A DNA stretch of 32,000 bases from Raphidiopsis brookii D9 (lineage in GTDB: Bacteria > Cyanobacteriota > Cyanobacteriia > Cyanobacteriales > Nostocaceae), in assembly GCA_000175855.1 (NCBI GenBank), contig ACYB01000036.1, forward strand, positions 30,001 through 62,000, read 5' to 3'. The translations under genes and the position numbers were made by a program. A model generated the notes under the pieces. The model saw only the letters and a list, made by a program, of their open reading frames with translations, did not search any database and was not told the DNA's origin. Positions 3,858-32,000 of this stretch are shown here, one piece after another. How positions within the stretch are numbered: position 1 is the first letter of the stretch; each line of letters begins with the position of its first letter.

Positions 3858-3930
3858 AAAAGCTACTTTGTCATTTTAAATCATAGCGAACTAGATTTCC
3901 AACTCTAGTGAAAAATATTGGTCAAATTCC

Positions 3931-5634: not shown

Positions 5635-5671
5635 ATAGTATAATTCGAGTTGGTAGTTTAACGATTATGTT

Positions 5672-6022: not shown

Positions 6023-6059
6023 ACACTGTGTTTACGGATAGAAAGTGCTTAATCATCTT

Positions 6060-6084
6060 GCTACCCATTAAAAGGTAGCTTTTT
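6060..6084 (+). terminator. Candidate rho-independent terminator downstream of the rhodanese gene
   Basis: GCTACC (6060-6065) and GGTAGC (6074-6079) form a 6-bp stem with an 8-nt loop, followed by TTTTT (6080-6084). The stem is short and AT-poor, so support is weak. Confidence 0.35.
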
Positions 6085-6323
6085 GTATCAGCAAGCACAA
6101 ACTTTTGCAAAAAATTTATGGGAATATGGTAGAATGGTTTGATATGGGTGTTTCAGTATAAGTAATACAAATATAGACAGGTAGTGCAAGCTGTTAGATG
6201 TTAGGTTTGTTAAAGTAATAATTAATAATTAATCATAATTAATCTCTTTTTTAATTTCCCTTGTCCGTGTCGCGAGACAAACTTTTGCACCCCTTAAAAT
6301 ACGCCTTCACCAAAATATACTTT

Positions 6324-7406: not shown

Positions 7407-7462
7407 TTTGCTTTTGCCATTGATGTTATGGTTTTGGTGTGTATGGAGTCTGGCGTGAGAAA

Positions 7463-8110: not shown

Positions 8111-8148
8111 GTAGAAATAATTGCCGATTGATACAATAGATAAAATAT

Positions 8149-8910: not shown

Positions 8911-9004
8911 AGACCAGGAAACATACCATACATTCGGGTTTAGTAAGGTCAAACTGTTCTGTGTCTGGTTTTTTGTGCTAGATATTGACCTAATTGAGAA
9001 GTAT

Positions 9005-9904
9005 TTACACTTTTTTACCTGCAGCAGCAGTCTGATTTTGAAACAATACAAAAGCAGCAACAGCGATTAAAAAATAACCAAAATACTTCTGTAATTTTCT
9101 TCCATCAATGAACCCAGACAGATAACCACCAAAAAAACTACCTAAACTAGCAGCAACAATAAAACTACCTATTAAGTTCCAATCCAAATTCACACGTCCT
9201 AAATAACCCAAAAAACCTGCCATCGCATTAGCTACTAAAATCAACAAAGAAGTACCAATGGCTTCTTTCATGGGTGTTTTACCTAAAATTACTAAAGCAG
9301 GAACAATGGCAAAACCACCTCCAACTCCTATCAACCCAGTTAATGTTCCTACTCCTAACCCCTCGGTTAATAACCATAACCAGCAATACTTGCAAACTGG
9401 GGGTTGGTAAATATGCTCGTAAACATCATCTTGATAAATATCTTGATCCTGTGGTGGATAACCCTGATCTAAATCCAAAGATCTATCCTTTCTTGGTTCT
9501 AGATCCTTTTGGTATTTTATGGATGATTTATCTGGATTTTGCCTACTCCTTCTGATCATAAGGAATGCTGCTATCAACATCACAATTGCAAAAAGCAGCA
9601 TTTGTAAATTGTCAGTAATAAATGGTAACCCTGCAATTTTAGCACCTAAAAAGGCACCTAACATGGTCGCAGAGCCAAAAATAAACGCTTTACGAAAATT
9701 GATGTTTCGATTTTTCCAATGAGGAATTAATCCAATCAAGCTGACCGTACCAACAATGATTAGGGTCATGGCAATTGCTGACTTGGTTGGCACCCCCATC
9801 ACATACACTAAAACCGGTAGGGCTAAAACTGAACCACCACCACCTATTAACCCTAAGCTAATACCTATTCCAGTCGCCAAAATATGTCCTAAGATCCACA
9901 TCAT
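9005..9904 (-). CDS. TauE/SafE family sulfite/organosulfonate exporter-like membrane protein
   Basis: Two repeated halves each carry the glycine-rich helix GGGGSVLALPVLVY / GVGGGFAIVPALVI, separated by a hydrophilic loop. This is the typical TauE/SafE (DUF81) topology. Confidence 0.8.
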   Translation of the reverse strand: MMWILGHILATGIGISLGLIGGGGSVLALPVLVYVMGVPTKSAIAMTLIIVGTVSLIGLIPHWKNRNINFRKAFIFGSATMLGAFLGAKIAGLPFITDNLQMLLFAIVMLIAAFLMIRRSRQNPDKSSIKYQKDLEPRKDRSLDLDQGYPPQDQDIYQDDVYEHIYQPPVCKYCWLWLLTEGLGVGTLTGLIGVGGGFAIVPALVILGKTPMKEAIGTSLLILVANAMAGFLGYLGRVNLDWNLIGSFIVAASLGSFFGGYLSGFIDGRKLQKYFGYFLIAVAAFVLFQNQTAAAGKKV

Positions 9905-9975
9905 AGTTTCTCATACCCAACTTCACAATCCACCAATTTTTAAAAACAGACCCCCTGTAGGGAGTCTTAGTATTT

Positions 9976-10515
9976 TCAACCTCTTTGGTTATAGGGCAAT
10001 TTCTTCAATAGCATAGCCATGGTACAAGTATTGGTTAACCCAGCAAATACTAAACCAGTCCCTACAAAACCACTTAAAATTAAAAACCAAGGAGAAACCA
10101 AAACTCCTAAAACTGTCCCAGTAACCACCAAAGTTCCTGCCACTATTTGCACTTGTCTCATTATACTTATAGGAGCATTCTTATTCCTATTAGTTACATA
10201 TCCTAACTTTTTCCAAGCACTAATTCCTCCCTGCAATTGACTGAAATCTCTAAATCCAAATTCTATTAATCTATGGGCAGCTTGTTTGGATCTATTTCCT
10301 GAATGGCAATAAAGAACTATCTTTTTGCCAGTTAATAAGGATATTTTTTCTGGATCTAATTTTGATAGAGACAAAAGTTGAGAACCAGGAATATGCTCAC
10401 CCATAAATTCTTCCTGCTCTCTCACATCTATCAAATGTACTCTTTGGTTTTCTAACAATTCTTTCACCTGTGAAGCATCTAATACTTGTAATTCTTCTTT
10501 GCCTGAAATCTCCAT
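9976..10515 (-). CDS. Membrane-anchored rhodanese (rhodanese domain plus a DUF2892-like two-helix C-terminus; YgaP-like)
   Basis: HLIDVREQEEF and the active-site loop CHSGNRS. The C-terminal IVAGTLVVTGTVLGVLVSPWFLILSGFVGTGLVFAGLTNTC resembles the YgaP membrane tail. Confidence 0.75.
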   Translation of the reverse strand: MEISGKEELQVLDASQVKELLENQRVHLIDVREQEEFMGEHIPGSQLLSLSKLDPEKISLLTGKKIVLYCHSGNRSKQAAHRLIEFGFRDFSQLQGGISAWKKLGYVTNRNKNAPISIMRQVQIVAGTLVVTGTVLGVLVSPWFLILSGFVGTGLVFAGLTNTCTMAMLLKKLPYNQRG

Positions 10516-15733: not shown

Positions 15734-17805
15734 CTAATCCCGATAACCAATCAGTAATTCCCAACCATTGAGTTTACCTATATCCTGGGGAGAACAGTCA
15801 ACAACATGTAACTGCCAATTTCCCTTGGCTGATGAATTTAGTAGCTGTTTGAGAACTGGTTGGGAACTGACTGTATAGGTTTTTTCTAAACGGGTTTGTC
15901 TTCCCAAAGTACGACTTTGCAATAACAAAGACTGACTGTTAGGGGGGATCAAATAAACTTCTAGATCTCCCAAAAAATCATGGCTAATATTCACGCCAAT
16001 TCTAATATCATTAATAATAATATTTTGAGGAACCACAATTGTAGTTCTCACTCCTTGTTTTTCCCCATCGGGAATAGTAACTTGATTTTTATTTTCGCCC
16101 CTGATTAATTTATTGGCATTGTTGGCAACCAATCCATTACCTCGTAATTTTTGAGCTGCTCTGACTGCTTTAGCTGCATTCACCTTACCATAACCAAACC
16201 ACAAACAATGACCATTACTATTATAAGTACCTCCCTGCAAACCCAATTGAGGATCTGGTTGTGGATCAACAATTTTATCAGTGGTTTCTTGTAAAATACG
16301 GTTGACCTGTTGAGCAGTTAAATCCGGATTGGCTGATAACATTAATGCTGCTACTCCAGCAACCACAGGGGTAGCACTGGAAGTTCCACCAAAATTATTA
16401 GTGAAATTTCCAGGATTATAACCCGCTTTCCCTATTTGATCTGTTGTCAACATTCCCAGTCCATCTATAGTTGTTGAAATAGTTGGTTGGGTGTACACAA
16501 AACCACTTTCTTGAACCACATTCCCGGAGGAGCATTATTACTAGGAGCGCAAACAGAAATATTCTCTCCCCAATTGCTATAGGCCGCTTTTTTATTTAAA
16601 CTTGTAGATGCAGAAACGGCAATTACATCGGGATGAATAGCAAACCCACTTAACCACTTGGTTTTGCCTTTTAACAGATCCTTAGGCCAATTTTGCTCGT
16701 CTATAGTACCACTAATGGGACGGTTAGCATTACCTGCTGCAAAAAGAATTACACATCCTTTTCCATTACGTCCCTTGGTTGCAGCACGGGTAATTGCTGC
16801 TTTTTGGCGTAAAGATAAGGGAAAATAAACCGCAGATGCTCCCCAGCTACAGGAGATAACACTGGCATTGTATTTTAATGCCCAGTTGAATATGTCCTCA
16901 ATTGATTCATCATCCAAATATCCAGTTGTACGAATTGGCATGAGGGCACAACCAGGGGCCACACCAACAATACCCTGTCCATTTTCTTCAGCAACTGCTA
17001 GTCCAGCACAAGCAGTACCATGACTAGTTTCTTGCTCTCCTGGTAGGGGTAAAAAGTCTTTTTCTTTTAAATCCCTGGGAGCAACAATTTTACCCACTCC
17101 TTGTAAATCTGGGTGGTTCAAATCAAAGGAGTCATCCACAACTGCGACTACCACTGAACGTACCCCACGAGTTATATCCCAAGCTTGCTCTACAGAAATA
17201 TGCGAAGCGATCGCCAGTTGATTTCCACCACTGTGATTGAGATACCACTGTTGAGGATAGAGGGAATCGCTGGGTCTGTAATGGGTTTCTTGTTGAATAA
17301 AAACATTTGGTTCCGCTGCTAAGACTTCTGGTAGGGTTTGTAGTTGGTTGGCAATTTTGAGAGGATTATGTGGGGACTGTTTGCTGACTAAAAATGTAAA
17401 GGTATTGGGTAAATCAGCTATAGGTTGGTTTTCAGTGAGATTAAGTGAAGAGGTTATAATACCAATTTTATCATTATCTACCCCAGCTGCAAATTGAACT
17501 GTTATCTGATCACTCAAATAGACATAGCTGCTAGGGTTATCCTGTAATTGATAAACATGACTGGCAAAAGCTACTTTTTGATCAGATCTAGCTTGTGACA
17601 TAGCCGCTTCTATCTGATCTGGTGTAACAGTGAATAATTCCAACTTAGCTCTGGGAATAGTACGCTGCCATTTTCCCCAGGAGATCCTGGATAATTCCTC
17701 CCTGTTTAGGTCAGCATACAAACGAAGAGTAAAACGTTCCGTGGATTTTATGAGAATCAACTCCTCTCCACCACGTTGCAAAACTACTGGTTGGTCATTG
17801 ATCAT
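15734..17805 (-). pseudogene. S8 subtilisin-like serine peptidase with a C-terminal proprotein-convertase P-domain, interrupted by a 1-nt frameshift (pieces 16465..17805 and 15734..16519)
   Basis: Asp is in VVAVVDDSFDLNHPDL and His is in TSHGTACAGLA. After the shift, Ser is in FGGTSSATPVVAGVAALMLS. The C-terminal IRIGVNISHDFLGDLEVYLIPP...GNWQLHVVD...GKLNGWELLIGY looks P-domain-like. The text reads ISVCAPSNNAPPG, then in the adjacent frame NVVQESGFVYTQP. The shift lies in the CCCGG run at 16523-16527. Confidence 0.8.
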
Positions 17806-17939
17806 ATTCTTGATGATTAAATATTTTTGATAAACATACTGGAAACTATGCTTAACTTAGTATGGTGGTCACTATATTGTATATCAAGTTGGAGGGATTT
17901 TCCCGTCAACCGCTTTAAGTCCCCAAACCATTTGACTTT

Positions 17940-18509
17940 ATGAACCTCAAAACTATTTACTTATTGCCCATAATATTTTGTGGTCTGTCCTTACCCGTCC
18001 AATCTCAGGTAGTCCAGTCACCAAATAAACCAGTACAGACTAAACCTAATGATAACCAACCTAGTCCGACCCCAAGGAAGAGTGAAAATACCAGTGTATT
18101 AAGTATTACAGGAGGCGATCGCCTGATGAAGGAGGGACAGGAAGCGGTGTCTGGCAAAAACTATACTCTAGCGGTCAAAAAACTCCAGGAAGCGCGTCAA
18201 ATATATAATCAGCTATCTACCTTTTACCAAGAATTAAATGCCAGTTTTTCCGGGATTGATTTTAGCGTCTCTGATTCCCACCGCAAAAAGGCCCTAGAAA
18301 CAGCCCAAAAACGAGACGAAGCGACTTATCAATTAGCATTGGTACATCGCTCATTAAACCAACCTGATTTGGCCATACCTCTTTTAATTCAAGTCATTAA
18401 AAGTCAAAACCCTACCTGGGAACTAGGCAAAAAGGCCTATCAACAGCTGTGGGAACTAGGTTTTGCGGACATAGCTTATCCTGGAAAGACGGAAAATCCA
18501 GGAAAGTAG
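17940..18509 (+). CDS. Secreted hypothetical protein (signal peptide, helical/TPR-like body)
   Basis: MNLKTIYLLPIIFCGLSLPVQSQ has signal-peptide character, followed by a Pro/Asn/Gln-rich linker and helical repeats. I recognise no family. Confidence 0.55.
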   Translation: MNLKTIYLLPIIFCGLSLPVQSQVVQSPNKPVQTKPNDNQPSPTPRKSENTSVLSITGGDRLMKEGQEAVSGKNYTLAVKKLQEARQIYNQLSTFYQELNASFSGIDFSVSDSHRKKALETAQKRDEATYQLALVHRSLNQPDLAIPLLIQVIKSQNPTWELGKKAYQQLWELGFADIAYPGKTENPGK

Positions 18510-18564
18510 CAGATTTTGGATTAACTGATAATAATTAGAGAAGGATGTTTTTCTAGGAATAACA

Positions 18565-18795
18565 ATGATAACTCCCCAACAGGTTGAACAAATGATTAAA
18601 GGAGAACTACCAGATGCACAAGTACAAGTGCAAGACCTAACTGGTGGTGGAGACCACTATCAAGTAACAGTGGTTTCATCGCAATTTGCGGGTAAAGGAC
18701 TTGTACAACAACATCGGATAGTTTATGATGCTTTAAAACAAGCTATGTCAACCGAGGCTATTCACGCTTTGGCTTTGAAAACATGTGCTCCCTAG
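18565..18795 (+). CDS. BolA family protein
   Basis: 76 aa with [34 protein letters not shown]...IHALALKT, the BolA/IbaG fold signature. It is adjacent to a monothiol glutaredoxin, its known partner. Confidence 0.8.
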
Positions 18796-18831
18796 ATTAT
18801 GGACAATTAACACAACAAGGAATTAAAAACC

Positions 18832-19167
18832 ATGACAGTAGAAAACCCAACAGAAATTAAAGCAACAATTGATAAATTAGTCAAAGAAAACAAAATAATG
18901 GTTTTCATGAAAGGAAATAAATTAATGCCTCAATGTGGTTTCTCTAATAATGTTGTACAAATTCTCAACACTTTAGGAGTCCCCTTTGAGACCTTTGATG
19001 TTCTTTCTGACTATAACGTTCGTCAAGGTATTAAGGAGTATTCCAACTGGCCCACAATTCCCCAGGTTTACATTAATGGAGAATTTATTGGCGGGTCTGA
19101 TATTTTGATTGAACTATATCAAAAAGGTCAATTACAGCAAATAGTTGAAGTAGCATTAGCTTCTTAG
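18832..19167 (+). CDS. grxD: Monothiol (CGFS-type, Grx4 family) glutaredoxin
   Basis: [24 protein letters not shown]...[19 protein letters not shown] contains the CGFS active site and the glutathione-binding motifs. Confidence 0.9.
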
Positions 19168-19191
19168 ATATCCTCTTTAGTCCTCCTATTC

Positions 19192-19372
19192 AAGCAGGGC
19201 GTTTTCAAAGTCCGTGGTAAATTGCAAAATGACTTTTTAAAAACCCTTTTCCACACAGCGATCGCAGCTTTTTTTCTTAATTTTCGATTAATTAAATTTT
19301 AAAAAAAGCCCAAACATTGACGGTAAAAATGTTCTGGCGATCGCAATTTTGGAGAATGAAAACGCCCTGCTT
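19192..19372. mobile_element. Candidate MITE-like element: 16-bp perfect terminal inverted repeats enclosing about 150 bp of AT-rich non-coding DNA
   Basis: AAGCAGGGCGTTTTCA (19192-19207) is the exact reverse complement of TGAAAACGCCCTGCTT (19357-19372). The interior carries two HIP1 sites (about 19259 and 19338) and has no credible ORF. It sits at the boundary between core genes and the accessory island. Confidence 0.35.
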
Positions 19373-19427
19373 AGAGAAGCTATCCATTAGTGAGATATTT
19401 TTTAACAAAAAGCGGATTTGGGAAAAT

Positions 19428-19661
19428 ATGAAGGTCTCATTCGAAAAAAACTATCCAAATATTACCCGATGGATTGATGAGCATGAAGGCTTGATTGAAA
19501 TTGGCTACGATGACGATGATCCCTTAAATTCTTTTATCCGTGCTGTAGATTCTGGTGGAACACTATGGGAAGGAAAAGAAAGTTATGAAAGTATCGATGC
19601 AGCACTGCAAGATTTAAATGCGGGGCTGGCATCTGTATTGGAAGAGATTTATGGAGAATAG
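19428..19661 (+). CDS. Small acidic hypothetical protein (77 aa)
   Basis: The ORF is open from 19317, but its upstream part overlaps the inverted-repeat element. ATG 19428 gives MKVSFEKNYPNITRWIDEHEGLIEIGYDDDDPLNSF..., which I cannot assign to a family. Confidence 0.4.
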   Translation: MKVSFEKNYPNITRWIDEHEGLIEIGYDDDDPLNSFIRAVDSGGTLWEGKESYESIDAALQDLNAGLASVLEEIYGE

Positions 19662-19671
19662 ATTGCACTAA

Positions 19672-20784
19672 TCAGTGTAAACCACTATCAAGTTTATCTA
19701 AAACAAAGTGATTCCCACTCTCAAAATGTCCAAAAATTCTTTTAGCATCCCGGTCTGACCAAGCATCTATCTCATGGGTAGACGGAGGACGGGGATTTCC
19801 TTTGAGTGCTTTTAAGTCAAGAGATGATACATTACATTTACCTCCTGATTCTAAATTCCTTGCTAACTGGTCTATTCTCTCGTTAATTAATACTAATCTA
19901 TCCCCTGATATTCCCTTCAAACTACCCTCAAACCTAGATCCATAACTTAACATTTCACTGGGTGAAGGATGCAACCTCTCCCCATAAATCTCTTTATTTG
20001 TTCTTTTCCACACCAACTCTCCCCAAGGAGATAAAGAGACTTCACCTCCTACCGTCATTAATAGGGTTTCTGGTACACCACTAACGTCAGCAGTTTTCAT
20101 TTTATTTGCCAGTCTACGAAAAACTTGAAGATGGTCACGTACGCTGTCTTCTACTACCATTTTCACGGGCAATTTTGGTATGCGCAACAGGTCTTTGGCT
20201 GTTTCAAAAATGTAAATTGTCTCGTCTGCATAAAATGTGGCTAGGGTTTGTAAAAATCCCTGCACACTCTTGAATCCCCCAGTTAAGTTAAATATAATCT
20301 TATATTGGGAATTTCTATACTCAGGTATGGTATCTTCAAACCACTCCACCATATCTGATAAAGCAATTTGAAAGGACTCAATATCTTTTGTTTGCAGATC
20401 GGTCCTTCGGATTGTCTCAACTATAAAACCCCTTTTTCTTAACCAGAATTTTACCAAAGTAGCTGTCTGTTCCCCTAACCAGGTGTCAGTACAAAGCAAA
20501 AAGTGAGTGTCTGCTTTCTTCTCTAACTTACCATTATAAAGTTTAATAATGCCATTTAGCTCCGCTGACATCTTACTTGCTAACTCAAGATCAGCAGATG
20601 CTAGTTTTTCTTCTACTCTCTTAGCAAGCGATCGCAGTGTTAGGCTATCTTCTGGCGGTATATCTTGAATGTATTTTGCATTAGCATATTTACTGACCAA
20701 ACCTCTTTCCTCTTGAGCTGCTTGATTGGTCAACAAACTTGTGCCACAGGGTGAGAAAACAAATAAACGATTTTCCATGATCAA
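19672..20784 (-). CDS. CARF-domain protein of the APE2256 type with a C-terminal RelE/ParE-like region (CRISPR-ancillary-type effector)
   Basis: N-terminal FVFSPCGTSLLTN, then SAELNGI and NLTGGFKSVQG, which are motifs I associate with the APE2256/TIGR02619 CARF family. The C-terminal THEIDAWSDRDAKRIFGHFESGNHFVLDKLDSGLH resembles the last strands of RelE-fold toxins, and that part is inferred. Confidence 0.65.
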   Translation of the reverse strand: MIMENRLFVFSPCGTSLLTNQAAQEERGLVSKYANAKYIQDIPPEDSLTLRSLAKRVEEKLASADLELASKMSAELNGIIKLYNGKLEKKADTHFLLCTDTWLGEQTATLVKFWLRKRGFIVETIRRTDLQTKDIESFQIALSDMVEWFEDTIPEYRNSQYKIIFNLTGGFKSVQGFLQTLATFYADETIYIFETAKDLLRIPKLPVKMVVEDSVRDHLQVFRRLANKMKTADVSGVPETLLMTVGGEVSLSPWGELVWKRTNKEIYGERLHPSPSEMLSYGSRFEGSLKGISGDRLVLINERIDQLARNLESGGKCNVSSLDLKALKGNPRPPSTHEIDAWSDRDAKRIFGHFESGNHFVLDKLDSGLH

Positions 20785-20842
20785 GGTTTCTGGTTACAAG
20801 GGGTAATTTTATACTTTGGGACAGAGGTTCCAAACAAGTTTG

Positions 20843-22111
20843 TTAAGAAAGGGTGTTAGCAATGGTCTTTAACTCGAGTATAATCTGACCTGCTCTTGTT
20901 TCTAAACTTTCTGCTTTTTGAGGACTCTTGTTCATACCCACATGGGCAATATCATTGCGAATTTCGATTAACTTACCCCATTGTAGGGAAAACAAATTAA
21001 AATCAGGTAGTTTTTCAAATTCATCATCCCAAGGGGAAACAGATGTTATTTCTTTGCCACGAAGTTTAATTTGTCCATTATTGAGCGCATTCCCCACCTG
21101 TTCTCGCTGGTCTTTACTTAGTAGATCTTGTTCACCCAATCGATATGCTAAAACGGAAACTAGCCATTCTCTTGCTAAAGTCATAGCTTGCACAACTTGA
21201 TGTCTTTGTATATACCAATCTATTAGTTGAAATTGTAATCTCAGCCCTTGAGCTAAATTTTCGCTATTAGTGGGATTTTCTAGGGCAAATTGTCCATATT
21301 CCTGGGTTAATTTTTGAGAAATCAGTCCAAAAGGTTTAGCTCTTTTATCAAAACTACGCTCTGCTTTTTTGATAATTTTCTCTAATTTTGTAGTTTCTTT
21401 TAAAATTTCTACAGGACGGACAAGACCTATAGCCAGAGAAATTTGATTAATAATGTCAGCAGTATCTTTAAATTCTCTAGCTAGAGGTCGTATAGTCGGA
21501 TCATCTCTTTTTTCATCATTAGAAATTGCATTTTTTAACAGCTCTGCTAAGGGAGAACCATCACCTACTTTGACAAATCTATCTGCGGCCGCAAGCCAGT
21601 CTAATAAGCTGAGCATGGGCAATAAATCATAGGTGGGGGTATCTGCACCTTGGGCATTAGGGTCAAAAGCTCCATATAACACACCTTCAATTTGTACCTG
21701 TTTTACCGTACGTAGGTAGCTAATAGCTAACAAGGCAATAACTGGAATGGAACGGAAACTATGGGTCAGGTCAAAAATAACCCTATCGCCCTCGTTTAAA
21801 CAACTAGTAATTTTATCAAAAATTAACCAACTGTCATCCAAAGAATTACTCTCGGGAATATCAAAAACAGGCTCTAATTTAACAGATTTATTAGCTAGTT
21901 GTTCTTGTAATCCTTGCCAATTAGATACAGTTCCATTTCTGGGAATTTTAGTAGCTACCGTGGGTGTTAATAATACATATAATGTATCAGGTTGATAAAA
22001 TTCAACCAGGGCTTCCTGAAAAAATTTAGTCCTTACTGCTTGACTAGTTGTGGGATGGATATAATTGGTCTCGGTGTAATTATTAAAACCAAGAAAGGAA
22101 ATAATTTTCAT
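20843..22111 (-). CDS. Csx1/Csm6-like CARF-HEPN protein (TM1812 / DxTHG-motif family)
   Basis: The N-terminus MKIISFLGFNNYTETNY is the TM1812-type start. VIFDLTHSFRSIPV is a DxTHG-type motif with Ser replacing Gly. The C-terminal LIEIRNDIAHVG contains the Rx4H HEPN ribonuclease motif. Confidence 0.75.
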   Translation of the reverse strand: MKIISFLGFNNYTETNYIHPTTSQAVRTKFFQEALVEFYQPDTLYVLLTPTVATKIPRNGTVSNWQGLQEQLANKSVKLEPVFDIPESNSLDDSWLIFDKITSCLNEGDRVIFDLTHSFRSIPVIALLAISYLRTVKQVQIEGVLYGAFDPNAQGADTPTYDLLPMLSLLDWLAAADRFVKVGDGSPLAELLKNAISNDEKRDDPTIRPLAREFKDTADIINQISLAIGLVRPVEILKETTKLEKIIKKAERSFDKRAKPFGLISQKLTQEYGQFALENPTNSENLAQGLRLQFQLIDWYIQRHQVVQAMTLAREWLVSVLAYRLGEQDLLSKDQREQVGNALNNGQIKLRGKEITSVSPWDDEFEKLPDFNLFSLQWGKLIEIRNDIAHVGMNKSPQKAESLETRAGQIILELKTIANTLS

Positions 22112-22218
22112 CTGTTTACAAGGTTACTTACTGGTATTATGAAATGTTCTTTTATTTACATGTTTTAATTATACTAACCCGCGAATAAAAATTGTGTCAT
22201 CTACCTGGCGGAATAGAA

Positions 22219-22240
22219 ATATCTATCTTTAGATAGATAT
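22219..22240. repeat. Perfect palindrome ATATCTATCT-TT-AGATAGATAT immediately 3' of the truncated vapC
   Basis: The 10-bp arms at 22219-22228 and 22231-22240 are exact reverse complements. The element lies 5 nt downstream of the vapC stop (22246-22248). Confidence 0.6.
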
Positions 22241-22245
22241 CTAAT

Positions 22246-22515
22246 CTAAACTATAAGGGAATCACCTACGGACATTTTTTGCTGTTGGCGCAAAGCAACC
22301 GCAATTTCAAGCGTAACTTTATTGATCATCAAAACATCCAAGTTATCTAAAATCGCCATGATGGCCTGTTTTTCAGCATCACCTAAACGATGGTAGCCCA
22401 ATGTTTCCAAACGACTAATCGCAGAATAATGCGTGGCATAATTCACCAACCAGCTACGCAACTGCGTATATGGCGGCTGAGTGGCGTAAATAATCAAATT
22501 ACTATCAATCAGCAT
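22246..22515 (-). CDS. vapC: PIN-domain VapC-like toxin, apparently C-terminally truncated (89 aa)
   Basis: MLIDSNLIIY supplies the first PIN Asp, SRLETLGY the Glu, and SVGDSLIV the third acidic residue. The ORF then stops, and the usual final 35-40 aa (the xTxNxxDF region) are missing. The ATG at 22515 overlaps the upstream antitoxin stop by 11 nt. The ORF track extends the start to 22587. Confidence 0.6.
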   Translation of the reverse strand: MLIDSNLIIYATQPPYTQLRSWLVNYATHYSAISRLETLGYHRLGDAEKQAIMAILDNLDVLMINKVTLEIAVALRQQQKMSVGDSLIV

Positions 22516-22774
22516 CCTCTCTCCCGAATAAATTGCGATCTTGCCTTTGTTCACGCTGCCAAACAACTGGATCAGCAATTTCTGCAAAAGGATTTAACGC
22601 CACCGCCTGCGCCAATGCTTGCGCCAAAACTTCCCGCCTTGCTTGGTTTGAAGTGATAGGCCTTTTTTTTCGTGCTTTTTGTTCTAGGTAAACAGCATAA
22701 TTCAGTAACTCCGCTTGCGATGATATCGGTAGAGCGGCAGCATGGTGTTGAATTTGTTGCAAAATAGGGTTCAT
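22505..22774 (-). CDS. Type II antitoxin (DUF2281/VapB-like), 89 aa
   Basis: MNPILQQIQHHAAALPISSQAELLNYAVYLEQKA resembles DUF2281-type antitoxin N-termini. It is translationally coupled to the PIN gene through an ATGCTGATTGA overlap. The ORF track extends it to 22921, but that region overlaps the FkbM gene end and reads as non-coding. Confidence 0.55.
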   Translation of the reverse strand: MNPILQQIQHHAAALPISSQAELLNYAVYLEQKARKKRPITSNQARREVLAQALAQAVALNPFAEIADPVVWQREQRQDRNLFGREDAD

Positions 22775-22880
22775 AGCTCCTGTCGTTTGTCTAGTACCGG
22801 CGATATCTATATTACTGCTCAACAGGAAGCAGGTAAATAACACTCCTCTATGTTGTTGCTTTAGCACGGGGAGTGTCAAC

Positions 22881-22914
22881 TGTAGTATCTTTACAGATGT
22901 AGTATCTTTACAGA
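22881..22914. promoter_or_regulatory. Perfect tandem duplication of a 17-mer (TGTAGTATCTTTACAGA x2) upstream of the antitoxin gene; candidate TA operator
   Basis: The two copies at 22881-22897 and 22898-22914 are identical. On the minus strand each unit carries CTGTA-N7-TACAG inverted arms, and a TTGACA hexamer follows directly downstream (22875-22880, minus strand). The operator role is inferred from how autoregulated TA promoters usually look. Confidence 0.4.
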
Positions 22915-23708
22915 CTGGCATGAGTGTCGTACCATGGCTCCTTAAGATTGAGTGTTTCTATGAGCATCCTACCCAGAGGATATCTATAAATAATCCCCTG
23001 TACGCCCAATATTTTATAGAACCAGAAAATGCGTTTGTAGATATTAATTGCTGCTCTTTCTGAAAGCCAATGACCGGGTGTTTCTTCTCCAAATAATCCA
23101 CTAGCACCAAATTCAAATTGATGTTCAATGTAATTGCCTTCTCTTGCGGGATATGGGCAAATTTGTTGTGCAGTTTTCTCTTGGTTAATAACTTTAAATT
23201 TCTGATAACCGAGTTCTTTTAAGAGCTTAAATTCTTCCAACAGGCTACTCCACGAAGTTTTGACTGATTCTATGGAAATAAACTGTGGCTTAGTATCAAA
23301 GTGTTTGAGCGCCTGAACGCATAATATATCTGAACCTTCAATATCAACTTTTAGATAATAGGGAATGCCAAAGTCTTGTAAAATATTTTCAAATCTAGCC
23401 CCTTGTACAGTAATAGCCTCCGATTTGGTACCCAGAATTTCATTGCGAACAACAAAATCTGAAGAAGTTGTCCCCCAAATACTTTTGTCTAGGTTGGTAT
23501 AGAAGGTAATTTCGCCATCTTGGGGGGCGATTGCTACATTGAGGAGTTGAAGTTGACCATTATCTATATATGATTGTAGTTTATTTTTTGTTGCTTCATA
23601 AATTTGGGGGTTGGCTTCTATACCCACCACTCGAAAACCTTTTTTTAAATAGTATTCGGTATCTTCACCCTGATGAACACCAACATCTATTATTAAATTT
23701 TTATCCAT
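22908..23708 (-). CDS. FkbM family SAM-dependent methyltransferase
   Basis: IIDVGVHQGEDTEYYLKKGFRVVGIEANPQIY is the FkbM-type motif I region, and the size (266 aa) is typical. Confidence 0.8.
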   Translation of the reverse strand: MDKNLIIDVGVHQGEDTEYYLKKGFRVVGIEANPQIYEATKNKLQSYIDNGQLQLLNVAIAPQDGEITFYTNLDKSIWGTTSSDFVVRNEILGTKSEAITVQGARFENILQDFGIPYYLKVDIEGSDILCVQALKHFDTKPQFISIESVKTSWSSLLEEFKLLKELGYQKFKVINQEKTAQQICPYPAREGNYIEHQFEFGASGLFGEETPGHWLSERAAINIYKRIFWFYKILGVQGIIYRYPLGRMLIETLNLKEPWYDTHASL

Positions 23709-23884
23709 AGATAATAAGTTTTCCTAATCGTTCTCCCAAGCATACTCCTCCATATTAACCCATTACCTCGTTGCTGTCTACCTAATCCAGCGCAATCGCA
23801 CTGCACTCCCTGTGATCGCTCTTCCCGTACCACCGCATCCCCAAAATTAATATAATGGGGGAGTCCTACCTGAATTTAAAGATA

Positions 23885-24736
23885 ATGGTCACCACTTTAA
23901 AACCAGTTTCCACCCTACCAACACAGGACGAATTACCTTGCGATGATGGAGTGCCAATGGAGACTCAACGTCACAAAATGCAAATAGAAATCCTGATAGA
24001 AACCCTAGGTCCATGGTTAAAGAATCGCGAAGATGGCTACATTGGTGGCAATATGTTTGTATACTTTAGTGCCAATGAAATCAAAACAGAAGATTTTAAA
24101 GGACCAGACTTTTTTGCGGTATTGGGAGTACCAAAGGGAGAGCGGAAAAGTTGGGTGGTATGGCAAGAAGGAAAAAGTCCAGATGTGATTATAGAGCTGT
24201 TATCAGAGAGTACAGCCAAAACAGATAAGATAACCAAGAAAAAAATCTACCAGGAGCAAATAAGGGTACCAGAGTATTTTTGGTATGACCCCTTTGACCC
24301 AGAAGACTGGCAAGGGTTTGGGCTAAGGGATGGAGTTTACGAACCATTGGAGCGGATAGATGGGATGTATGAAAGCAAGCAGATGCAATTAAAGCTAGTG
24401 CGGTGGGAAGGGGATTATGAAGAGGTAAATGCGGTATGGCTAAGGTGGGCAACTTTAGAAGGAGAACTGCTACCAACCCGGTCAGAGATAATAGAACAGG
24501 AACGATTAGCTAAAGAACAAGCAGAAGCTTTAGTTATTCAGGAACGCCAACAAAGGGAGATAGCAGAAACCCTAGCTATTCAAGAACGCCAACAAAAGGA
24601 GGTAGCAGAAGCCCTGGCTATTCAAGAACGCCAACAAAAGGAGGTAGCAGAAGCCCTAGCTATTCAAGAACGTGAGAAGAAGGAAAAATTAGCTGCCCAC
24701 TTGCGCGCTCTTGGCATCAACCCAGATGAGATTTAA
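23885..24736 (+). CDS. Uma2 family (DUF820) PD-(D/E)xK endonuclease-like protein with a repeat-containing coiled-coil C-terminus
   Basis: LPCDDGVPMETQRHKMQIEIL...GGNMFVYF...PDFFAVLGV...PDVIIELLSESTAKTDKITKKKIYQEQIRVPEYFWYDP is the Uma2 core. The ORF is open from 23855, but ATG 23885 (MVTTLKP) is the likelier start. Confidence 0.8.
   Translation: MVTTLKPVSTLPTQDELPCDDGVPMETQRHKMQIEILIETLGPWLKNREDGYIGGNMFVYFSANEIKTEDFKGPDFFAVLGVPKGERKSWVVWQEGKSPDVIIELLSESTAKTDKITKKKIYQEQIRVPEYFWYDPFDPEDWQGFGLRDGVYEPLERIDGMYESKQMQLKLVRWEGDYEEVNAVWLRWATLEGELLPTRSEIIEQERLAKEQAEALVIQERQQREIAETLAIQERQQKEVAEALAIQERQQKEVAEALAIQEREKKEKLAAHLRALGINPDEI
24521..24672 (+). repeat. In-frame 42-bp tandem repeat, about 3.6 copies, encoding AEALAIQERQQKEV units inside the Uma2 gene
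   Basis: The units begin at 24521, 24563, 24605 and 24647. Units 2 and 3 differ at only 2 of 42 positions, and the fourth diverges after CAAGAACG. Confidence 0.9.
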
Positions 24737-24809
24737 AGGCGTTGCACTCACACGGGATGATGTATAATAAGGGGAAGAATTTTTAGCAGGCGATCGCACG
24801 AAGCTCTCG

Positions 24810-24971
24810 CTATAGATAATCGTTCTTTACCCCTAAAATTTTCCCTATAGGACTATCTCCTAGTCCTAATCTTTGACGTTCTTGATTAGCGATCGCCTCG
24901 GCAGTGACTTGAACAGGCATTCCACTGACATTGTATTCCGGTGGATATTTTCGAGGAAGGGGTGATTTCAT
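24810..24971 (-). other. Short ORF (53 aa), possibly a remnant of an ImmA/IrrE-type or similar accessory gene
   Basis: MKSPLPRKYPPEYNVSGMPVQVTAEAIANQERQRLGLGDSPIGKILGVKNDYL. The ERQRLGLGDSPIGKIL stretch resembles N-termini of ImmA/IrrE-like proteins. It is below the ORF-track size cut-off and support is weak. Confidence 0.2.
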
Positions 24972-25168
24972 TATTTATTCTAATTCGAGGTAATTTTGGC
25001 ATAATTCCTCCAATTGCTTAATAATCCCATCGGCTTTTTTCAAAACTCACACATACCTTAATTAATACAACGGTGTCAAAATAACCCAGTTAATAATGTC
25101 CCTGTTTAATGTAATAGGAACTGAGACTGAAAACTAACTTTGGCTTTAATAAAAACGGGTGAAGCTAT

Positions 25169-28100
25169 CTATAAGTGGGCAAGTTTTTTTATGTTCTCTC
25201 TCCATTCCTCGTTGTATTTCAATACCAGTACTTGGTACTTTGTCTCCCTCCTCACCTTTTCTCTCTTTCTTTTGTCTTCTCTTTTCTGCTCTTCTGTGTC
25301 ATGCACAGACCCATCACAAAAAATGGCAATTTTGTCTATGTATACAAAGTCTGCTTCACAATCAGTCCCTGGTATTAAAAATTGCGCAGCATCGGGCATT
25401 CTATATCCTCTTTCGTAAATCTCTTTTATCACTTCCCTCTCTAACTCAGATCTCCTATCCGTCTGTAAATACAGTGTTTCAAATTCTTTCTCTCTGTCCA
25501 TCTCCCTTTCTCTCTCTAAATAACTCTCCTTAATCTCTTCTAACAGTTCTTTTATTAAATGTCGGTTGATTAAGTTATGCTCATTCTGATTTCTATAAGA
25601 AAGCAGGCACTGGTAACAAGCATAAACACAATCCTCTTTCGGTTCGTAAAAATGACAAATGTCTAGTGCTTTCTCCGCTATTTTATTCAGGTGTTGTTTA
25701 TCTTGTAAAATCTGGGATAAAACTCCCGCTCCCCCCTCCGCAGCTTCCCAAAATAGTAGATATTTACCATTCCCCATTTTTTCTGAGTCTAGTTCATTCG
25801 GTTCTAAGTTATAATGCTCTTGTATTCCTCTCTCTAAAGCATATTGCAGGCTTGTCATTATTGTCTCTGTGTCTTCTCTATTCTCACTTTTCCCCTGGTC
25901 TATGGTGTCTATTTTTGATTCCTCTGCTTCTTTAATTAATTCAATAATTAATATGTTACAAGTAATATTCACCATCAGAAAAATGTCACTTTTGGTTGTA
26001 GTGCTATTTTTCCCTATTTCTTCTTTATTCTCTTCATTCTCATTACTTATCCATTTGCCTGTTTGCGTATCTAAACAAAATCCTTGGTCTTTCTTTTTTG
26101 CTGACCCTCTATTAATTCTCGATATGCTCGCTGTCGCTCCATAAGTCAGTTTTAACAGATTCTTCCCCTCTTTGGTTTTTATTATTACCGTCTTTTTGTT
26201 CCCTTCACTATAACAAAAATGAGTGGTTATGTTATATCCATATTTTAATCTCTCTTCTTCATCACAAGTAATTCTTTGCTTTTTCTGAGTATATACTGTA
26301 TCCATGGATAGAATTTGATTAACTTTAGCACGTTCATTTTTATCTGAGTATGCTTTAATATCTCTTTCGCAATTTTCACACCAGTCTTTAGTATCAATAT
26401 TATAAATATAACCACAGTTAAAGCATACTGTTGCTCTCTGATATTGATTTTCTATACCACCGAGGATTTTACTCCTGGAGATCATGAATTTATCCCCCTC
26501 ATGATAAATTATGTTCCGAGGAGCAAATTCTCTCAGAGCAACCGAACGCAGTCGAGAAATAAATTCACCCCCTGTTGGTTATTAATAAACGCCCGCACCG
26601 GTAAACGGGGAAAATTAAACCCTGGTAAAAATCCCTCAGCAGCAAAGTAACGATAGGGATAAAATTCATTTTGTTGATTATTTCTACTGTTCCCCCCTAT
26701 TAATAATTCCATCTGTCTTTTTGCCTCCTTTTCCTGTCTTTCATAGTCATCTGCTTCTGTTTTCCCTTGTAAATACTTATCCCTTTTTTTTGTCGCTTCT
26801 TCTAATTGTGCTTTTGCACTTTGGTAAAGTTTTCTCCACCTTTCACAGTGTTGATTAAACGCACTAGGTGCATTTTCTATAATCCCTTCTACCCAGTCTT
26901 TTATATACCAGTTGGTCTGTCTCAAGTCTTCTTGACAAAACTCGTCCGCTAAAATTTCCTCACAGGCTTTCACACAACTCTCAAATTTACTTACCTGCCT
27001 AAACTCATCACCACTCTTTCTGTCGTGATTATTAAACTCACTTACAGTCTTCCTAAGATTTATTCTTTCTATTATGTCATCCCGAAGTGGATAGTCCTTA
27101 TCTCCCAGTTCTAAAATATTGGTCATAGAATCCCCCAAATATATTCCCGTATGAGCTAACCATATAGAATAAATGTGGGATTTAATTAAATCTTCATTGC
27201 CTAGTTCTATTTTTGGCGGTGCTACTATACCAGATACCATTTGGGATTGTCTATGAAAAAAGTATTGGTCATGTCCACTACTATTGGAAGCATAAGTAAT
27301 TACTAAGGCTTCTTGTCCACTTCTCCCTGCTCTTCCACTTCTCTGTGCATAATTAGCTGGATTAGGTGGAACATTACGTAAATGTACCACACTTAAATCA
27401 GAAATATCTATTCCTAATTCCATTGTAGGTGAGCAAAACAAACTCCCTAAAATCCCCTGTCTAAATTTCTCTTCCCGCTCCTGACGCACTTGACTAGAAA
27501 CCTGTCCCGTATGTTCTCTACCCTCTATTGTTTGAATCTCTCTAGCATGATTCTGGTAGAAGTTTTGAAAGAAACTGTTAACCGTAATTTTATTTGGTTC
27601 TGTATCTTTTAATCCCTTAAATGATAGAATATCTACCGGAATTTCTGCCTTTTGGGCAGATTTCCAAATCAAACAGTCAACTCGCAATTGTATTTCTAAC
27701 GGCGTTAAATCCGAGTTAGAGTTAGCCTTACTTTTTTTCGTTAAAATTCCAACATTAATTAAAGCAAGAATTAAACACCTAATTAAATCATTGTACTCAG
27801 ATTCACATAAATCCGTACTACGACCAGACCAGTTATCACAGGAACGTAAAAACTTACCCAATTTACTGTAAGCAGTCAGTTTTACCCTAGTTTCATCATT
27901 GGTTTGCTTAGAAGTAGAATCACCAGTTTTGTTTAGCACTGCCCACCTAGCCATCTTCGGCTTTTCATCAGGCTCAAAAGCCCATGGATCCTTTATAGCT
28001 TGATTAACATTTCGTACCAGACTATCCTGTTTATCCCTCTGCAATAAAATTGCATCCATAGCCAATTCCCTTCTTAAAAGGTCCAGTAGCACAACACAGG

Positions 28101-30414
28101 CCTTGTATCTTTCAGAAAAACTAGCTTCTAAAAGAACAACATGGCTATGCTTTTGCCAAACCTCCTTGTTACGACAAGCCTCCTCTAGTCCATCATATTC
28201 AATCTCTAACAGTCCACATTGCTCCAAATTCGGTTGTACAATTCGCCATCCCCGTCGCAAGTCTTGGTATAGTCGATACTCTATTAATTGGGCAAAAGCA
28301 TTTTCATTTCTTCTTCTACCATTGTCAAACTCCACCACCTCCTTAGCGTAGTCACCTTGAGACAGATTCATTTGCTTAATTACAGCAGAAACTAGACTTC
28401 CGTGCCTTAGTTCCCCCTCCGCTTGCAGAGCACCTAACAAAGCACCCCTTAAAAAACTGGTTTGAACAAAATCATTAAAATGTCCTGCTTGTAAAGAAGC
28501 ATCTTGACGATTATCAGTAAAACTCAGGATTTTAGCAGCTTTCGCCTTTTCCCCTTTGAAAATGCTTTTCAACCGGGTAACAGTGGATAAACATAAGAGC
28601 GTAGTTGCCGTACTTCTTCCTTCACTGCTTAAACTAGATAGTTTAGAAAACTCATTCTTATGACCAGAATGAAAAGTTCCACAATGTAAACAAAACCTAA
28701 AAGGGTGAGGAACAAACCAACAGGTATTCCCCTCTAGCAGGGAACCTATCTTCCCAGATGGTAATATTTGCAGTGATTGGGGGACAAAACGTTCATAATC
28801 TTTTTTTATTTCCCTTCCCCTCCTTTTCGTTTCTTTGAACCAGCTATCGGGTAATTTTTCTCGGTCCTGTGGATCATGCCAAAGATTAGGTCGATTTAGG
28901 ATTAGGTAACCTGAGATTTTTGGGTCCTCCGAAACCTCATCATCAAAACTACGGGGGAAAATGCCTTCATTTGGTAAGTAATTAACCAAGTAATAATCCT
29001 GTCCACATTCCCGGCAAAACACTAGGGGAAAAAGTAGCCGATTTTCAGTGGTGGAATATTGACCATCAAGGGTTAAAACTCGATACTCGGGATTTTCAAT
29101 AGTAGAGTACACATTTCCCGCTTGTGAGATAAATTGATGCAATCGAAAAGTTAATCCTTTCACCCTACTTCCCCATAAAAACATCTCTTGAATGATGTCT
29201 AAACAAGTCTCTTGAGGAATTTGTGTTTCGTCAGCTAAAAGTTTGGCTCCTGCTTCTAAAGTAATAGGCGTACGTCTTACTAACACATGTCGTTTATTCT
29301 CTTGTTTATCTTCTTCTTTTCCCCTCTCTAATGTGTGTTCTAATACTTCATCTAGTCCAAAAGTTGTTTCCATCCAATAGCTGAGGGGATGAGCCTTAAA
29401 CTCTTCTATAGTTTGCTGTGAAGTTTCTGATAATCCTTCAATAATGCTAGTACGTAACTCTTCAACCGTAGGTTTATGTCTGACTATAGAGCGTTGTAAA
29501 GATTCAGTGATGACATTTTGTTGGAGAATTTGTTTACCGAATATTTTACTGGCTACATTAGCTACTACTTGACGACGACTCACAAGAGAGTTTTCCGTAG
29601 ACATAGTAGCACTAGTACCAATATATAATAAATCTTGACCACAGCGCTGGCGTAACTTACGGATAAGAATAGCCACATCAGCACCTTGACGACCTCGATA
29701 GGTATGTAATTCATCAAGGACCAGAAATTTTAAGTGAGGGGAACTGACTAATTTTTCTTCATGCGTGCGAGAGAGCATCAGTTCCAGCATTACATAATTA
29801 GTCAGGAGGATGTGGGGGGGATTATTTTGGATTTCATTCTTGGTTTGTAAACTTTCTTGTCCCGTATATTTAGCAATGCGGATAGGGGAATTGGGTACAT
29901 TAGCAAGAAACTTATTTAATTCTTCCTCTTGGGAATTAATTAGAGCATTCATAGGATAAACTAGAATTGCCCTCACACCTTTTATTTCAGGATTATGGAG
30001 CAAATCATTAAATATAGGAACAATATAAGTCATACTTTTCCCCGAACCCGTTCCCGTTGTTAACACATAGGATTGACAAGTTTGTGCCACCTCAAAAGCC
30101 CGTTTTTGGTGGAAATGAAAATGAAAAGGTTGGTTATTTTTAGAGAAATAGGCAATACACTCAGGATGGAGGAGACCTTTATCTACCAATTCAACTACTG
30201 TTGCTCCTGGTGTATATTGGGGATTTAGTTGTAGTAAGGGAGAATTCCAAAATTTTCCACTAGTTAGTTCCTGATTGACAAATTCTTCAACTCGTTGATC
30301 CTGAATTTTTAAAAAACTTTTTATGTAGCGGTGATAGTCATCAACTATCTCTTGACGGAATTGAAAAATATCTAGAAAGTTAGGGAAATAGTGAGGGTGG
30401 TTCATTGATTTCAT
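25169..30414 (-). pseudogene. Large DExH-box helicase (COG1205/YprA-like core) fused to a DUF1998 zinc-ribbon domain and a C-terminal Vsr/DUF559-like endonuclease domain; about 1748 aa after repair of one frameshift (pieces 26533..30414 and 25169..26485)
   Basis: Helicase motifs LTTGTGSGKSM (I), LVLDELHTYRG (II, DExH), GTSATM (III), FTDNRQDA and QRSGRAGRSG (VI). The DUF1998 region is YRYFAAEGFLPGFNFPRLPVRAFI, then after the shift GGEFISRLRSVALREFAPRNIIYHEGDKF...VCFNCGY...WCENCE...CYQCLLSYRNQNEH. The C-terminal EREVIKEIYERGYRMP...ADFVYIDKIAIFCDGSVHD looks Vsr/DUF559-like. The frames rejoin if the C5 run at 26568-26572 is read as C6. Confidence 0.8.
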
Positions 30415-30463
30415 TATTGGGTAATAGGGGTGGTTTTGGGTTTATTAAAGGGAAGGGAGAGGT

Positions 30464-32000
30464 TTAAAACAACCTATCCCAGGCTTGTAAAATCAACCGT
30501 TGAGTTTTATACTCACCATACATTTTCAGCTCATTATTTTTAAGCACTCTAAAAGACTCACTGGGAAAATCAGAACCGTAGATATCCGTAGGGTCTAGAA
30601 TGTAACGCATTTCATCACGAGAAAGATTATGGAGTTTACCATAATAAGCATCTAATTCAGCCCTAATTAAGGCTCTTCTCTCTATGTTCCAAAAAAAAGG
30701 TTCACCCTCATATCCCATCTCCAGAGCAAAAGGACGCATATCCCAGGTTGTGTATACTAATTCTAATACCCGGGGAGTAATATATTCTATATCTTTTTGG
30801 GTGTATCTTTCTGGGGGAATTATTGGTAGTTGTTTAACTATGAAAAAGTTAAGATGGGTGCTACCAACTTTTTGGCGGGTTACATAATCAAATACTAAGC
30901 TACTAAGATTAGCCACTAAACAAGAAACTAAACTAGTTTTTTCTAAAATTATTATTGGTGCACTATTACCAACCCCAACCCTAGGTAACAAACTAAAAAT
31001 AGCGGTACGTTGATCAGTTGCACGACAGATATCTCTAAATGCTAAAAACCAACTGTGATCCCACTTTCCTGCTAACTTCTGGTCAACTTCTGTTTTATCA
31101 ACCCAATACCGTGGGAAACAAACAAAAGAAGGATCTTTCTTTTCGTCCTCTGTTAAATCTCTCATATCTCCACTGGAGGTATAAGTTCCCCACCGGTGAT
31201 CAAACTGGTGAAACATCTTAGCTTCATATAATGGCACTAAACTATCACCCTTCTCATTTTTAAATACTCCACTATCATTTGCCATGTCAAACATCCTCAT
31301 AAATGAAATTCCCCAGGGGTTAATTCCCGTCTTTTCATTTTCTATTACCGGTAGTTGGTGGTAGATTTTTTTTGTTAATTGTGCATCCTCACTAGTTCTA
31401 AATACTGGACATGTTAACGTGTTGGGGTTAATTAGAGCAATTTCTTCTGCTTTTAAGTTAAATACTCTGTTTTTTTCTTCCAGTTGTTTCGTTCTACTCA
31501 AGAAAAATCCAAATCTGCTTTCTTCCGTTCTTCTCTTACTTATACCTAGTAAACAAAATTTATAACTGCGATGAACAGCTATAAATATTGCTTCTCTATT
31601 TTCAAAGTCATAAAGACTCGCCAAATGCTGTTGTTTAACCAAATCACCAAAAACATTTTACAAGTGTCATCTGTAGCAATACCAGTCGGTACTATTATTC
31701 CCACCCTTCCATCTTCCTTGATTAAATTTCTCGCTGTTTCCGCAAAAATTGAGTAAGTATTAACATCACCCACAGCAGTTAAAGGGAATCTCCCTGACTC
31801 CCGAATAAATTTATTTTGGGCTTCCGCATCATGACTCGCCTGTTCAAATTCTTGAGCCAGTTGGGGATTTTTTTGGGGTAATTCCTTAATCAGTTTCTCC
31901 CTAGCTGCCTTATTCTTTGCTGTAGCTATTTCATTGCTCCGTGATGCAAAAAATTCTTTCTGCTGGATTTTTATTCTCTCCCAGGGGGATTACCTAATAC
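30464..32000 (-). pseudogene. C-terminal two-thirds of a large Eco57I-like N6-adenine DNA methyltransferase (5' end off the right edge), with two 1-nt frameshifts in the window
   Basis: VLGNPP, then after a shift WERIKIQQKEFFASRSNEIATAKNKAAREKL (an NPPW catalytic motif IV split at the G5 run 31985-31989). This is followed by GDVNTYSIFAETARNLIKEDGRVGIIVPTGIATDDT. A second shift at the A5 run 31649-31653 leads into LASLYDFENREAIFIAVHRSYKFCLL...PLYEAKMFHQFDHRW.... It ends 49 bp upstream of the helicase ATG on the same strand. Confidence 0.75.

Follow-up and report, generated by a model that had tools for sequence, protein, structure and literature searches.

A locus in Raphidiopsis brookii D9 that very probably belongs to the ARMADA Type I anti-phage systems

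When a large helicase with a putative nuclease at its end is encoded directly behind a DNA methyltransferase, the question is which defence system the pair belongs to, and whether that system is a new one. Such a pair lies at positions 25169-32000 of a 32,000-nucleotide stretch of Raphidiopsis brookii D9 (GenBank assembly GCA_000175855.1, contig ACYB01000036.1, positions 30,001 to 62,000), and this whole stretch is called the window below. A first-pass annotation had read the pair as a compact two-gene defence module that resembled parts of DISARM and Druantia and was not a described system. Our analysis indicated that the region is the 3' part of armB plus armC of an ARMADA Type I anti-phage system, a reading to which we give a probability of about 0.9. 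The system is thus already known, since ARMADA was described in 2025, before this analysis (Bell et al. 2025, PMC12458937, bioRxiv 10.1101/2025.09.15.676423).

Gene content and identity of the locus

Open reading frame (ORF) calling and three-frame translation gave two co-oriented reading frames on the minus strand, with the methylase tail upstream and the helicase downstream, and the arrangement of two genes 49 bp apart was found just as the first-pass annotation had it. The main features are as follows (aa, amino acids).

25169..30414, minus strand: armC, YprA-family DExH helicase with DUF1998 and a predicted C-terminal Vsr-type nuclease; 1748 aa after one frameshift repair
30415..30463, minus strand: armB-armC intergenic spacer of 49 bp, from methylase stop to helicase start; same spacing in Cylindrospermopsis raciborskii CENA303
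30464..32000, minus strand: armB, last 512 aa of an approximately 1293-aa PglX-like N6-adenine DNA methyltransferase; cut by the window edge, two frameshift repairs needed

In the raw sequence armC falls into two ORFs, 26533..30414 (1293 aa) and 25169..26485 (438 aa). One G added to its G5 run restored a 1748-aa protein, which aligned without gaps at 99.3% identity to its C. raciborskii CENA303 orthologue, an intact protein of the same length. The fragments in the window correspond to EFA72522.1, EFA72523.1 and CRD_00700 on a 67,496-bp D9 contig.

The CENA303 locus (L084) aligned to window 16468..32000 at 98.8% DNA identity, and its order was armA (952 aa, opposite strand), 85 bp, armB (1293 aa), 49 bp and armC (1748 aa). 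The armB tail of the window aligned to residues 780-1293 of CENA303 ArmB at 95% identity. On the same D9 contig, EFA72528.1 was 99.8% identical to residues 359-952 of CENA303 ArmA, and EFA72526.1 was 99.7% identical to residues 88-785 of CENA303 ArmB. Because the D9 contig carries these ArmA and ArmB fragments, the module runs past base 32000, as had been suspected, and the remaining 5' part of armB and armA, whose product is an SNF2 ATPase of the BrxHII/RapA-like kind, would stand just beyond that base. The evidence on this neighbourhood did not point to a canonical DISARM or Druantia locus, but to a different named system, ARMADA.

A scan of one genome per species showed that this arrangement is widespread, and at least 80 loci from many phyla had full-length ArmC matches at 34-58% identity. 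Neighbourhood counts were limited to 35 listed loci with at least 8 kb on both flanks. The methylase stood beside the helicase in all 35 of them, which agreed with the expected co-occurrence of the two genes in other genomes, and an SNF2 gene was present in 33, always on the helicase strand. The conserved unit is therefore three genes including the SNF2 helicase, and not a compact two-gene module. Most phyla had the order ArmC-ArmA-ArmB, and cyanobacteria, with a few others, had ArmA-ArmB-ArmC; for example, locus L001 of C. raciborskii had SNF2, then a 1374-aa methylase, then the helicase, and locus L003 of Chroococcidiopsis had the same three genes with insertions.

These features are those of ARMADA Type I, which consists of ArmA, a BrxHII/RapA-like SNF2 protein, ArmB, a PglX-like N6-adenine methylase, and ArmC, a YprA-like helicase that ends in a Vsr-type nuclease for which activity is predicted, and whose gene order in cyanobacteria is ArmA-ArmB-ArmC (PMC12458937). 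The locus shares with it the same three gene families, the cyanobacterial order, a single-polypeptide ArmC with DUF1998 and one C-terminal Vsr domain, and the lack of ArmD. It differs from the type in that CENA303 armA is opposite in strand to armB-armC, that frameshifts interrupt all three genes of the D9 copy, and that D9 ArmC is without the approximately 30-100-aa N-terminal extension of most cyanobacterial homologues. The listed rows of Table S1 of the same paper name BAY42014.1, QNP30886.1 and UJS04812.1 as ARMADA Type I helicases (PMC12458937). ArmC was 57% identical to BAY42014.1 (P0142) over 99% of its length and 60% identical to P0125, a protein that shares its 90% cluster with QNP30886.1 and UJS04812.1, and the Type I helicases in these rows that matched full length at 57-60% include Cylindrospermopsis proteins. 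Helicases of Amycolatopsis vancoresmycina and Deinococcus marmoris are also found in these rows (PMC12458937), and in our scanned loci of these two species ArmC was matched full length at 35-36%. The accessions of D9 and CENA303 were not among the Table S1 rows listed, which has no bearing either way. With the same gene order, the C-terminal Vsr domain and these listed homologues, the claim that the module was not a described system had to be given up.

ARMADA Type II adds ArmD (RelE-UvrD) after armC, together with extra ArmC domains (PMC12458937), and the D9 locus was assigned to Type I and not Type II because it has no ArmD and no EEP or second Vsr domain. The Type II system of E. coli O157 (armABCD, OI-172) has the same order ArmA-ArmB-ArmC, and its ArmA, ArmB and ArmC (strain EDL933) are homologous to ours at 23-27% identity (E 1e-33 to 2e-43). 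But ArmC was only 23% identical to the E. coli Type II ArmC, over half its length, and that protein has 2113 aa with EEP-like and second Vsr domains that the window does not have, just as the window does not have the essential fourth gene armD (RelE-UvrD).

PADLOC v2.0.0, which predates ARMADA, called no system and labelled the parts separately as DruE, DrmMI and DpdE/DrmD. DISARM-like partners together with a Druantia-like helicase (PADLOC labels DrmMI, DrmD/BrxH and DruE) are the mix described for ARMADA. The SNF2 partner matched the DpdE model PDLC02853 at 1e-192 over its full length, and CENA303 ArmA matched DrmD at 8e-96 and BrxH at 7e-61.

The domains of ArmC were located as follows, all on the minus strand.

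29593..30111, minus strand: RecA1/DEAD domain, aa 102-274, with Walker A GTGSGKS (K126) and DELH (D234-H237); Pfam DEAD 2.4e-24
27316..27594, minus strand: Helicase_C/RecA2 core, aa 941-1033; Pfam Helicase_C 2e-13
26369..26425, minus strand: extra four-Cys zinc ribbon (C1331, C1334, C1346, C1349) in the OB-CON-DUF1998 region; invariant columns
25604..25849, minus strand: DUF1998/MZB zinc-binding domain, aa 1523-1604, with invariant C1596, C1600 and C1603; PF09369 32.8 bits, cut-off 24.2
25199..25441, minus strand: predicted Vsr-like PD-(D/E)xK nuclease domain, aa 1659-1739; MTES_1575/DUF559 matches, invariant residues, AlphaFold model

DEAD, Helicase_C and MZB/DUF1998 were all above their Pfam cut-offs in the one polypeptide of the repaired 1748-aa ArmC, so the proposed complete DExH helicase core was found, and the Walker A and DELH residues were invariant among 20 homologues. 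The sequence PLYEAKMFHQFDHRW, which the first-pass annotation had reported, is present as well. An insert of approximately 660 aa, with the invariant CxxC pairs C467/C470 and C575/C578, parts DEAD from Helicase_C; for ARMADA Type I helicases, the insertions described at this place, from RecA1 to RecA2, are BrxA-like, zinc beta-barrel and MarR-like (PMC12458937). A single DUF1998 four-Cys module had been proposed, and DUF1998 itself was upheld by PF09369, but the cysteines fell into two separate invariant four-Cys sets, C1331/1334/1346/1349 (CFNCG...CENC) and C1384/C1596/C1600/C1603. The ribbon C1331-C1349 would fit the description of ARMADA Type I, which has one zinc-binding insertion.

The nuclease domain was approached through homologues, conserved residues and a structural model. 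The isolated C-terminal domains of 14 of 16 homologues matched MTES_1575, 11 of 16 matched DUF559 and three weakly matched Vsr. D1689, D1701, H1705, D1714 and R1718 of ArmC were invariant among homologues. An AlphaFold model of the domain (pLDDT, the model's confidence score, 82) had as its top PDB match 3r3p, the Vsr-like catalytic domain of I-Bth0305I. The same fold was assigned to the ArmC C-terminus by Bell et al., who cited the 3r3p structure for related domains (PMC12458937). ArmC ends 9 residues past this single domain, and no nuclease was matched when the sequence of the C-terminal domain was searched by profile against the PDB. Together, the residues and the model point with moderate confidence to a Vsr-type nuclease that is predicted to be active, and the proposal that the helicase carries its own nuclease was supported to that extent.

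The armB tail matched Pfam Eco57I and PADLOC type IIG methylase models (3e-36), and TIGR02987 weakly, while the full-length CENA303 ArmB matched DrmMI at 3e-86 and PglX at 2e-13 in PADLOC. As a separate observation, a patch of approximately 25 aa (window about 30899..30980, aa 343-367 of the 512-aa tail) was almost wholly different between D9 and CENA303, and the remainder of the tail was nearly identical. Recombination of a specificity segment may account for this patch; according to the mBio paper, the gene that varies in the E. coli island is armB.

Several points weigh against the ARMADA Type I reading or against parts of it. At least four disruptions interrupt the D9 copy, with armC hit once, armB twice and armA once or more, and this copy may not be functional. 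Placement in the Type I clade would follow from identity to the listed proteins, not from a tree, and the experimental support for ARMADA, which applies to D9 by analogy, comes from the E. coli Type II system only. That armA is adjacent in D9 too is likely, given the shared contig, the consecutive locus tags and the arrangement of the orthologous locus in CENA303. Methylation as a mark of self, put forward in the first-pass annotation, is an unproven proposal. For the nuclease, the Vsr-like end of ArmC itself scored 18.9 bits against MTES_1575, under the Pfam cut-off of 38.2, and the Foldseek match of the model to 3r3p had a probability of 0.96 but an E value of 0.075.

Frameshifts in the D9 copy

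The state of the D9 genes is a question apart from their identity, and it is here that the strongest alternative lies. Three frameshifts were found in the arm genes of the window, one in armC and two in the armB tail, so the single frameshift noticed before proved right for armC, whose repair gives the 1748 aa, and incomplete for the methylase. Each lies in a homopolymer run, and the second of the armB pair lies in the catalytic motif.

26568..26572, strand not assigned: armC frameshift, C5 run (G5 on the coding strand); CENA303 has six
31649..31653, strand not assigned: armB frameshift, A5 run (T5 on the coding strand); CENA303 has six
31984..31988, strand not assigned: armB frameshift, C5 run within the NPPW codons; CENA303 has six
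31981..31991, minus strand: NPPW catalytic motif IV of ArmB; 11 nt instead of 12 owing to the C5 run 31984-31988

The raw D9 sequence reads NPPGRE* at motif IV, and the NPPW that had been reported for the methylase appears only after repair. The armA gene is also fragmented in the deposited D9 sequence.

We lean somewhat towards sequencing error as the source of the D9 arm frameshifts. For D9 the deposited genome is a draft made from 454/GS20 data at 27x, to which few Sanger reads were added, and all events were one-base homopolymer undercalls. Outside the frameshifts the proteins were 99.3-99.8% identical to intact orthologues, with a ratio of nonsynonymous to synonymous change (pN/pS) of 0.24. 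The other explanation, which we consider somewhat less probable though still a serious one, is that the D9 ARMADA genes are true pseudogenes of a decayed remnant, formed through slippage at 6-nt homopolymers in a streamlined 3.2-Mb genome. It draws on the three 6-to-5 shortenings in 6.8 kb, all within arm genes, with armA fragmented too, and on the finding that none of 15 runs of 7-8 nt was shortened, though pyrosequencing error should grow with run length. Enrichment of frameshifts in the arm genes was not significant (Fisher p = 0.23), and both this test and the pN/pS value, which is based on 28 differences, are too weak to part error from decay.

A subtilase gene (Peptidase_S8 plus P-domain) at window 15734..17805, minus strand, is split into ORFs of 446 aa and 261 aa. 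At its break, about 16516, D9 has AA where CENA303 has AAA, and in CENA303 the gene is unbroken over at least 690 aa. It is the only broken gene besides the arm genes, and because of it frameshifts in this assembly are not confined to the defence genes; this frameshift sits in a 3-nt run, which is atypical of 454 error and counts on the side of decay. The orthologous locus of GCA_002321945.1 was set aside, because it was shattered into small ORFs in the same way as its unrelated neighbours, which indicated an assembly quality problem. Decay, if it occurred, bears on the state of the locus and not on its identity, and real homopolymer frameshifts in the D9 arm genes would mean a natural switching-off of the system.

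DISARM, Druantia and restriction-modification as alternatives

As to identity, the first-pass annotation had pointed to DISARM and Druantia, and this likeness was borne out by PADLOC, which scored ArmC at 1e-96 with DruE3 and 2e-85 with DruE1, ArmB with DrmMI and ArmA with DrmD. The locus nevertheless shows all testable defining features of ARMADA Type I and lacks those of DISARM class 1 and Druantia.

A class 1 DISARM variant, in which DrmA and DrmB were fused and the PLD nuclease DrmC was replaced by a fused Vsr domain, is very improbable. Class 1 DISARM (DrmD, DrmMI, DrmA, DrmB, DrmC) resembles our locus in that it joins SNF2 and N6-adenine methylase partners to a YprA-family helicase plus DUF1998. 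The SNF2 and methylase partners matched DrmD (8e-96) and DrmMI (3e-86), the gene content parallels drmD-drmMI-drmA-drmB-drmC, and the same parallel was drawn in the mBio paper. But ArmC matched DrmA at only 7e-14, far below its DruE scores. DISARM divides helicase and DUF1998 between two genes and has a stand-alone PLD protein as its nuclease, while in ArmC helicase and DUF1998 are one polypeptide whose sole break is the 1-nt homopolymer frameshift absent in CENA303. No PLD domain or gene was found in ArmC, among its window neighbours or in the flanks of the CENA303 locus. Such helicases also form a clade with Druantia, apart from DISARM (Bell et al., PMC12458937).

A Druantia system with a DruE in unusual company is slightly more improbable still. 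By hidden Markov models DruE is the closest helicase family, the top PADLOC matches being DruE3 and DruE1 in a release older than ARMADA, and DruE shares with ArmC the large single-polypeptide YprA architecture and a C-terminal nuclease-type domain. The partners of Druantia, however, are DruH, DruA-D or DruM/F/G, and none of these was found beside the helicase in the window, in the CENA303 locus or in related loci, where SNF2 and N6-adenine methylase genes stand instead (33-35 of the 35 listed loci). Type III DruE carries PLD domains, and the Vsr domain of Type I/II DruE is predicted to be inactive (PMC12458937), unlike the C-terminal Vsr domain here, which keeps its catalytic residues. The helicase was only about 32% identical to E. 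coli DruE, in the RecA1 region only.

The least probable of all is a stand-alone type IIG/Eco57I-like restriction-modification enzyme beside an unrelated repair helicase (YprA/MrfA), for which the type IIG and weak TIGR02987 matches of the methylase tail speak, but these type IIG matches cover only the methylase and C-terminal parts of ArmB, Pfam found no nuclease domain in the full-length 1293-aa CENA303 ArmB (N-terminal approximately 460 aa without assignment), linkage and common strand are near-universal across phyla with the 49-bp spacing kept in CENA303, and the helicase has defence-type insertions and a nuclease that MrfA lacks. The view of the pair as a defence-type module was in this way supported, and ARMADA Type I remains the reading we adopt.

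Possible mechanism, related loci and neighbourhood

For ARMADA Type II it was reported that the system protects E. coli directly and non-abortively with all genes required, that defence depends on the ArmA and ArmC Walker motifs and on the ArmB NPPW motif, and that armB deletion mutants were obtained and assayed (PMC12458937; mBio paper). By homology, the PglX/DrmMI-like ArmB of a Type I system would read a DNA motif and probably methylate it, and ArmA would act as an SNF2 translocase on phage DNA. ArmC would be the effector, a YprA-type helicase that may load on single-stranded or forked phage DNA, and its fused Vsr-type nuclease would then cut the phage DNA, with direct, non-abortive protection as the expected outcome. 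Simple restriction-modification logic is disfavoured, because in Type II NPPW is needed for defence and armB deletion mutants could be made. The D9 locus itself is one further cyanobacterial ARMADA Type I example, in a toxic bloom-forming species, and adds little new; the first functional test of Type I and a search for the ArmB methylation motif could make use of an intact orthologue, for instance the CENA303 locus.

Some observations concern ArmA and its strand. In CENA303, armA (L084 712..3570, minus strand) is divergent from armB-armC (armB 3655..7536, plus strand), and the other SNF2 genes detected were on the helicase strand. The model PDLC02853 ("DpdE") matched ArmA end to end (L001 1145..4036 of C. 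raciborskii, and P0295; E 1e-192 to 3e-199), far above the DrmD and BrxH models. It was perhaps built from ARMADA and not Dpd proteins, in which case ArmA may be mislabelled DpdE.

Two divergent ARMADA Type I versions were seen in Cylindrospermopsis/Raphidiopsis, a CS-505/KLL07 type and a D9/CENA303 type, whose ArmC proteins are only about 60% identical and which lie in different genomic contexts. Some cyanobacterial loci had a UvrD-family helicase gene between armB and armC (L003 7956..10004, L007 about 7600..9657, L009 about 2228..4345). It stood with Type I-clade helicases, had a weak N-terminal ParE/YoeB (RelE-fold) match, and its product aligned near full length to E. coli ArmD (24% identity, E 2e-39). 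This ArmD-like RelE/ParE-UvrD gene is optional; it was found in Chroococcidiopsis, Pseudanabaena and an uncultured relative and is absent from the window. On this basis one might suppose an intermediate ARMADA subtype in the cyanobacterial branch, with a Type I-clade helicase, a Type II-like order, an optional ArmD-like gene and an inverted armA in Raphidiopsis/Cylindrospermopsis, but we regard this as doubtful; if such a subtype exists, D9 would represent it with the minimal set of three genes.

Small mobile or selfish genes also occurred within the ARMADA loci of relatives (L001 4209..4607 and 9355..9976; L003 7168..7578). They were a 23S rRNA intervening-sequence protein between armA and armB, an MNT/HepT toxin-antitoxin pair between armB and armC, and an IS200-type Y1 transposase in a relative's locus with a split armB.

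Within the window, plus-strand ORFs of 89-124 aa inside armC were taken as antisense chance ORFs, and scans for promoters, terminators, Rfam families and tRNAs gave nothing above background. The next gene downstream of armC is a Uma2-family gene on the other strand (23855..24736). At 3-5 kb downstream of armC lie two CRISPR type III accessory effectors on the minus strand, at 19672..20784 and 20843..22111, which are a CARF-RelE (PADLOC 1e-139) and a CARF-HEPN Csx1 (1e-116); a tandem-repeat scan found no CRISPR array in the window. With the CARF effectors and the Uma2-family gene, the region resembles a defence island. The Uma2-family gene contains, in its 3' part, a 42-bp tandem repeat (window 24520..24672, 3.6 copies, 90% matches), which encodes an in-frame 14-aa repeat.

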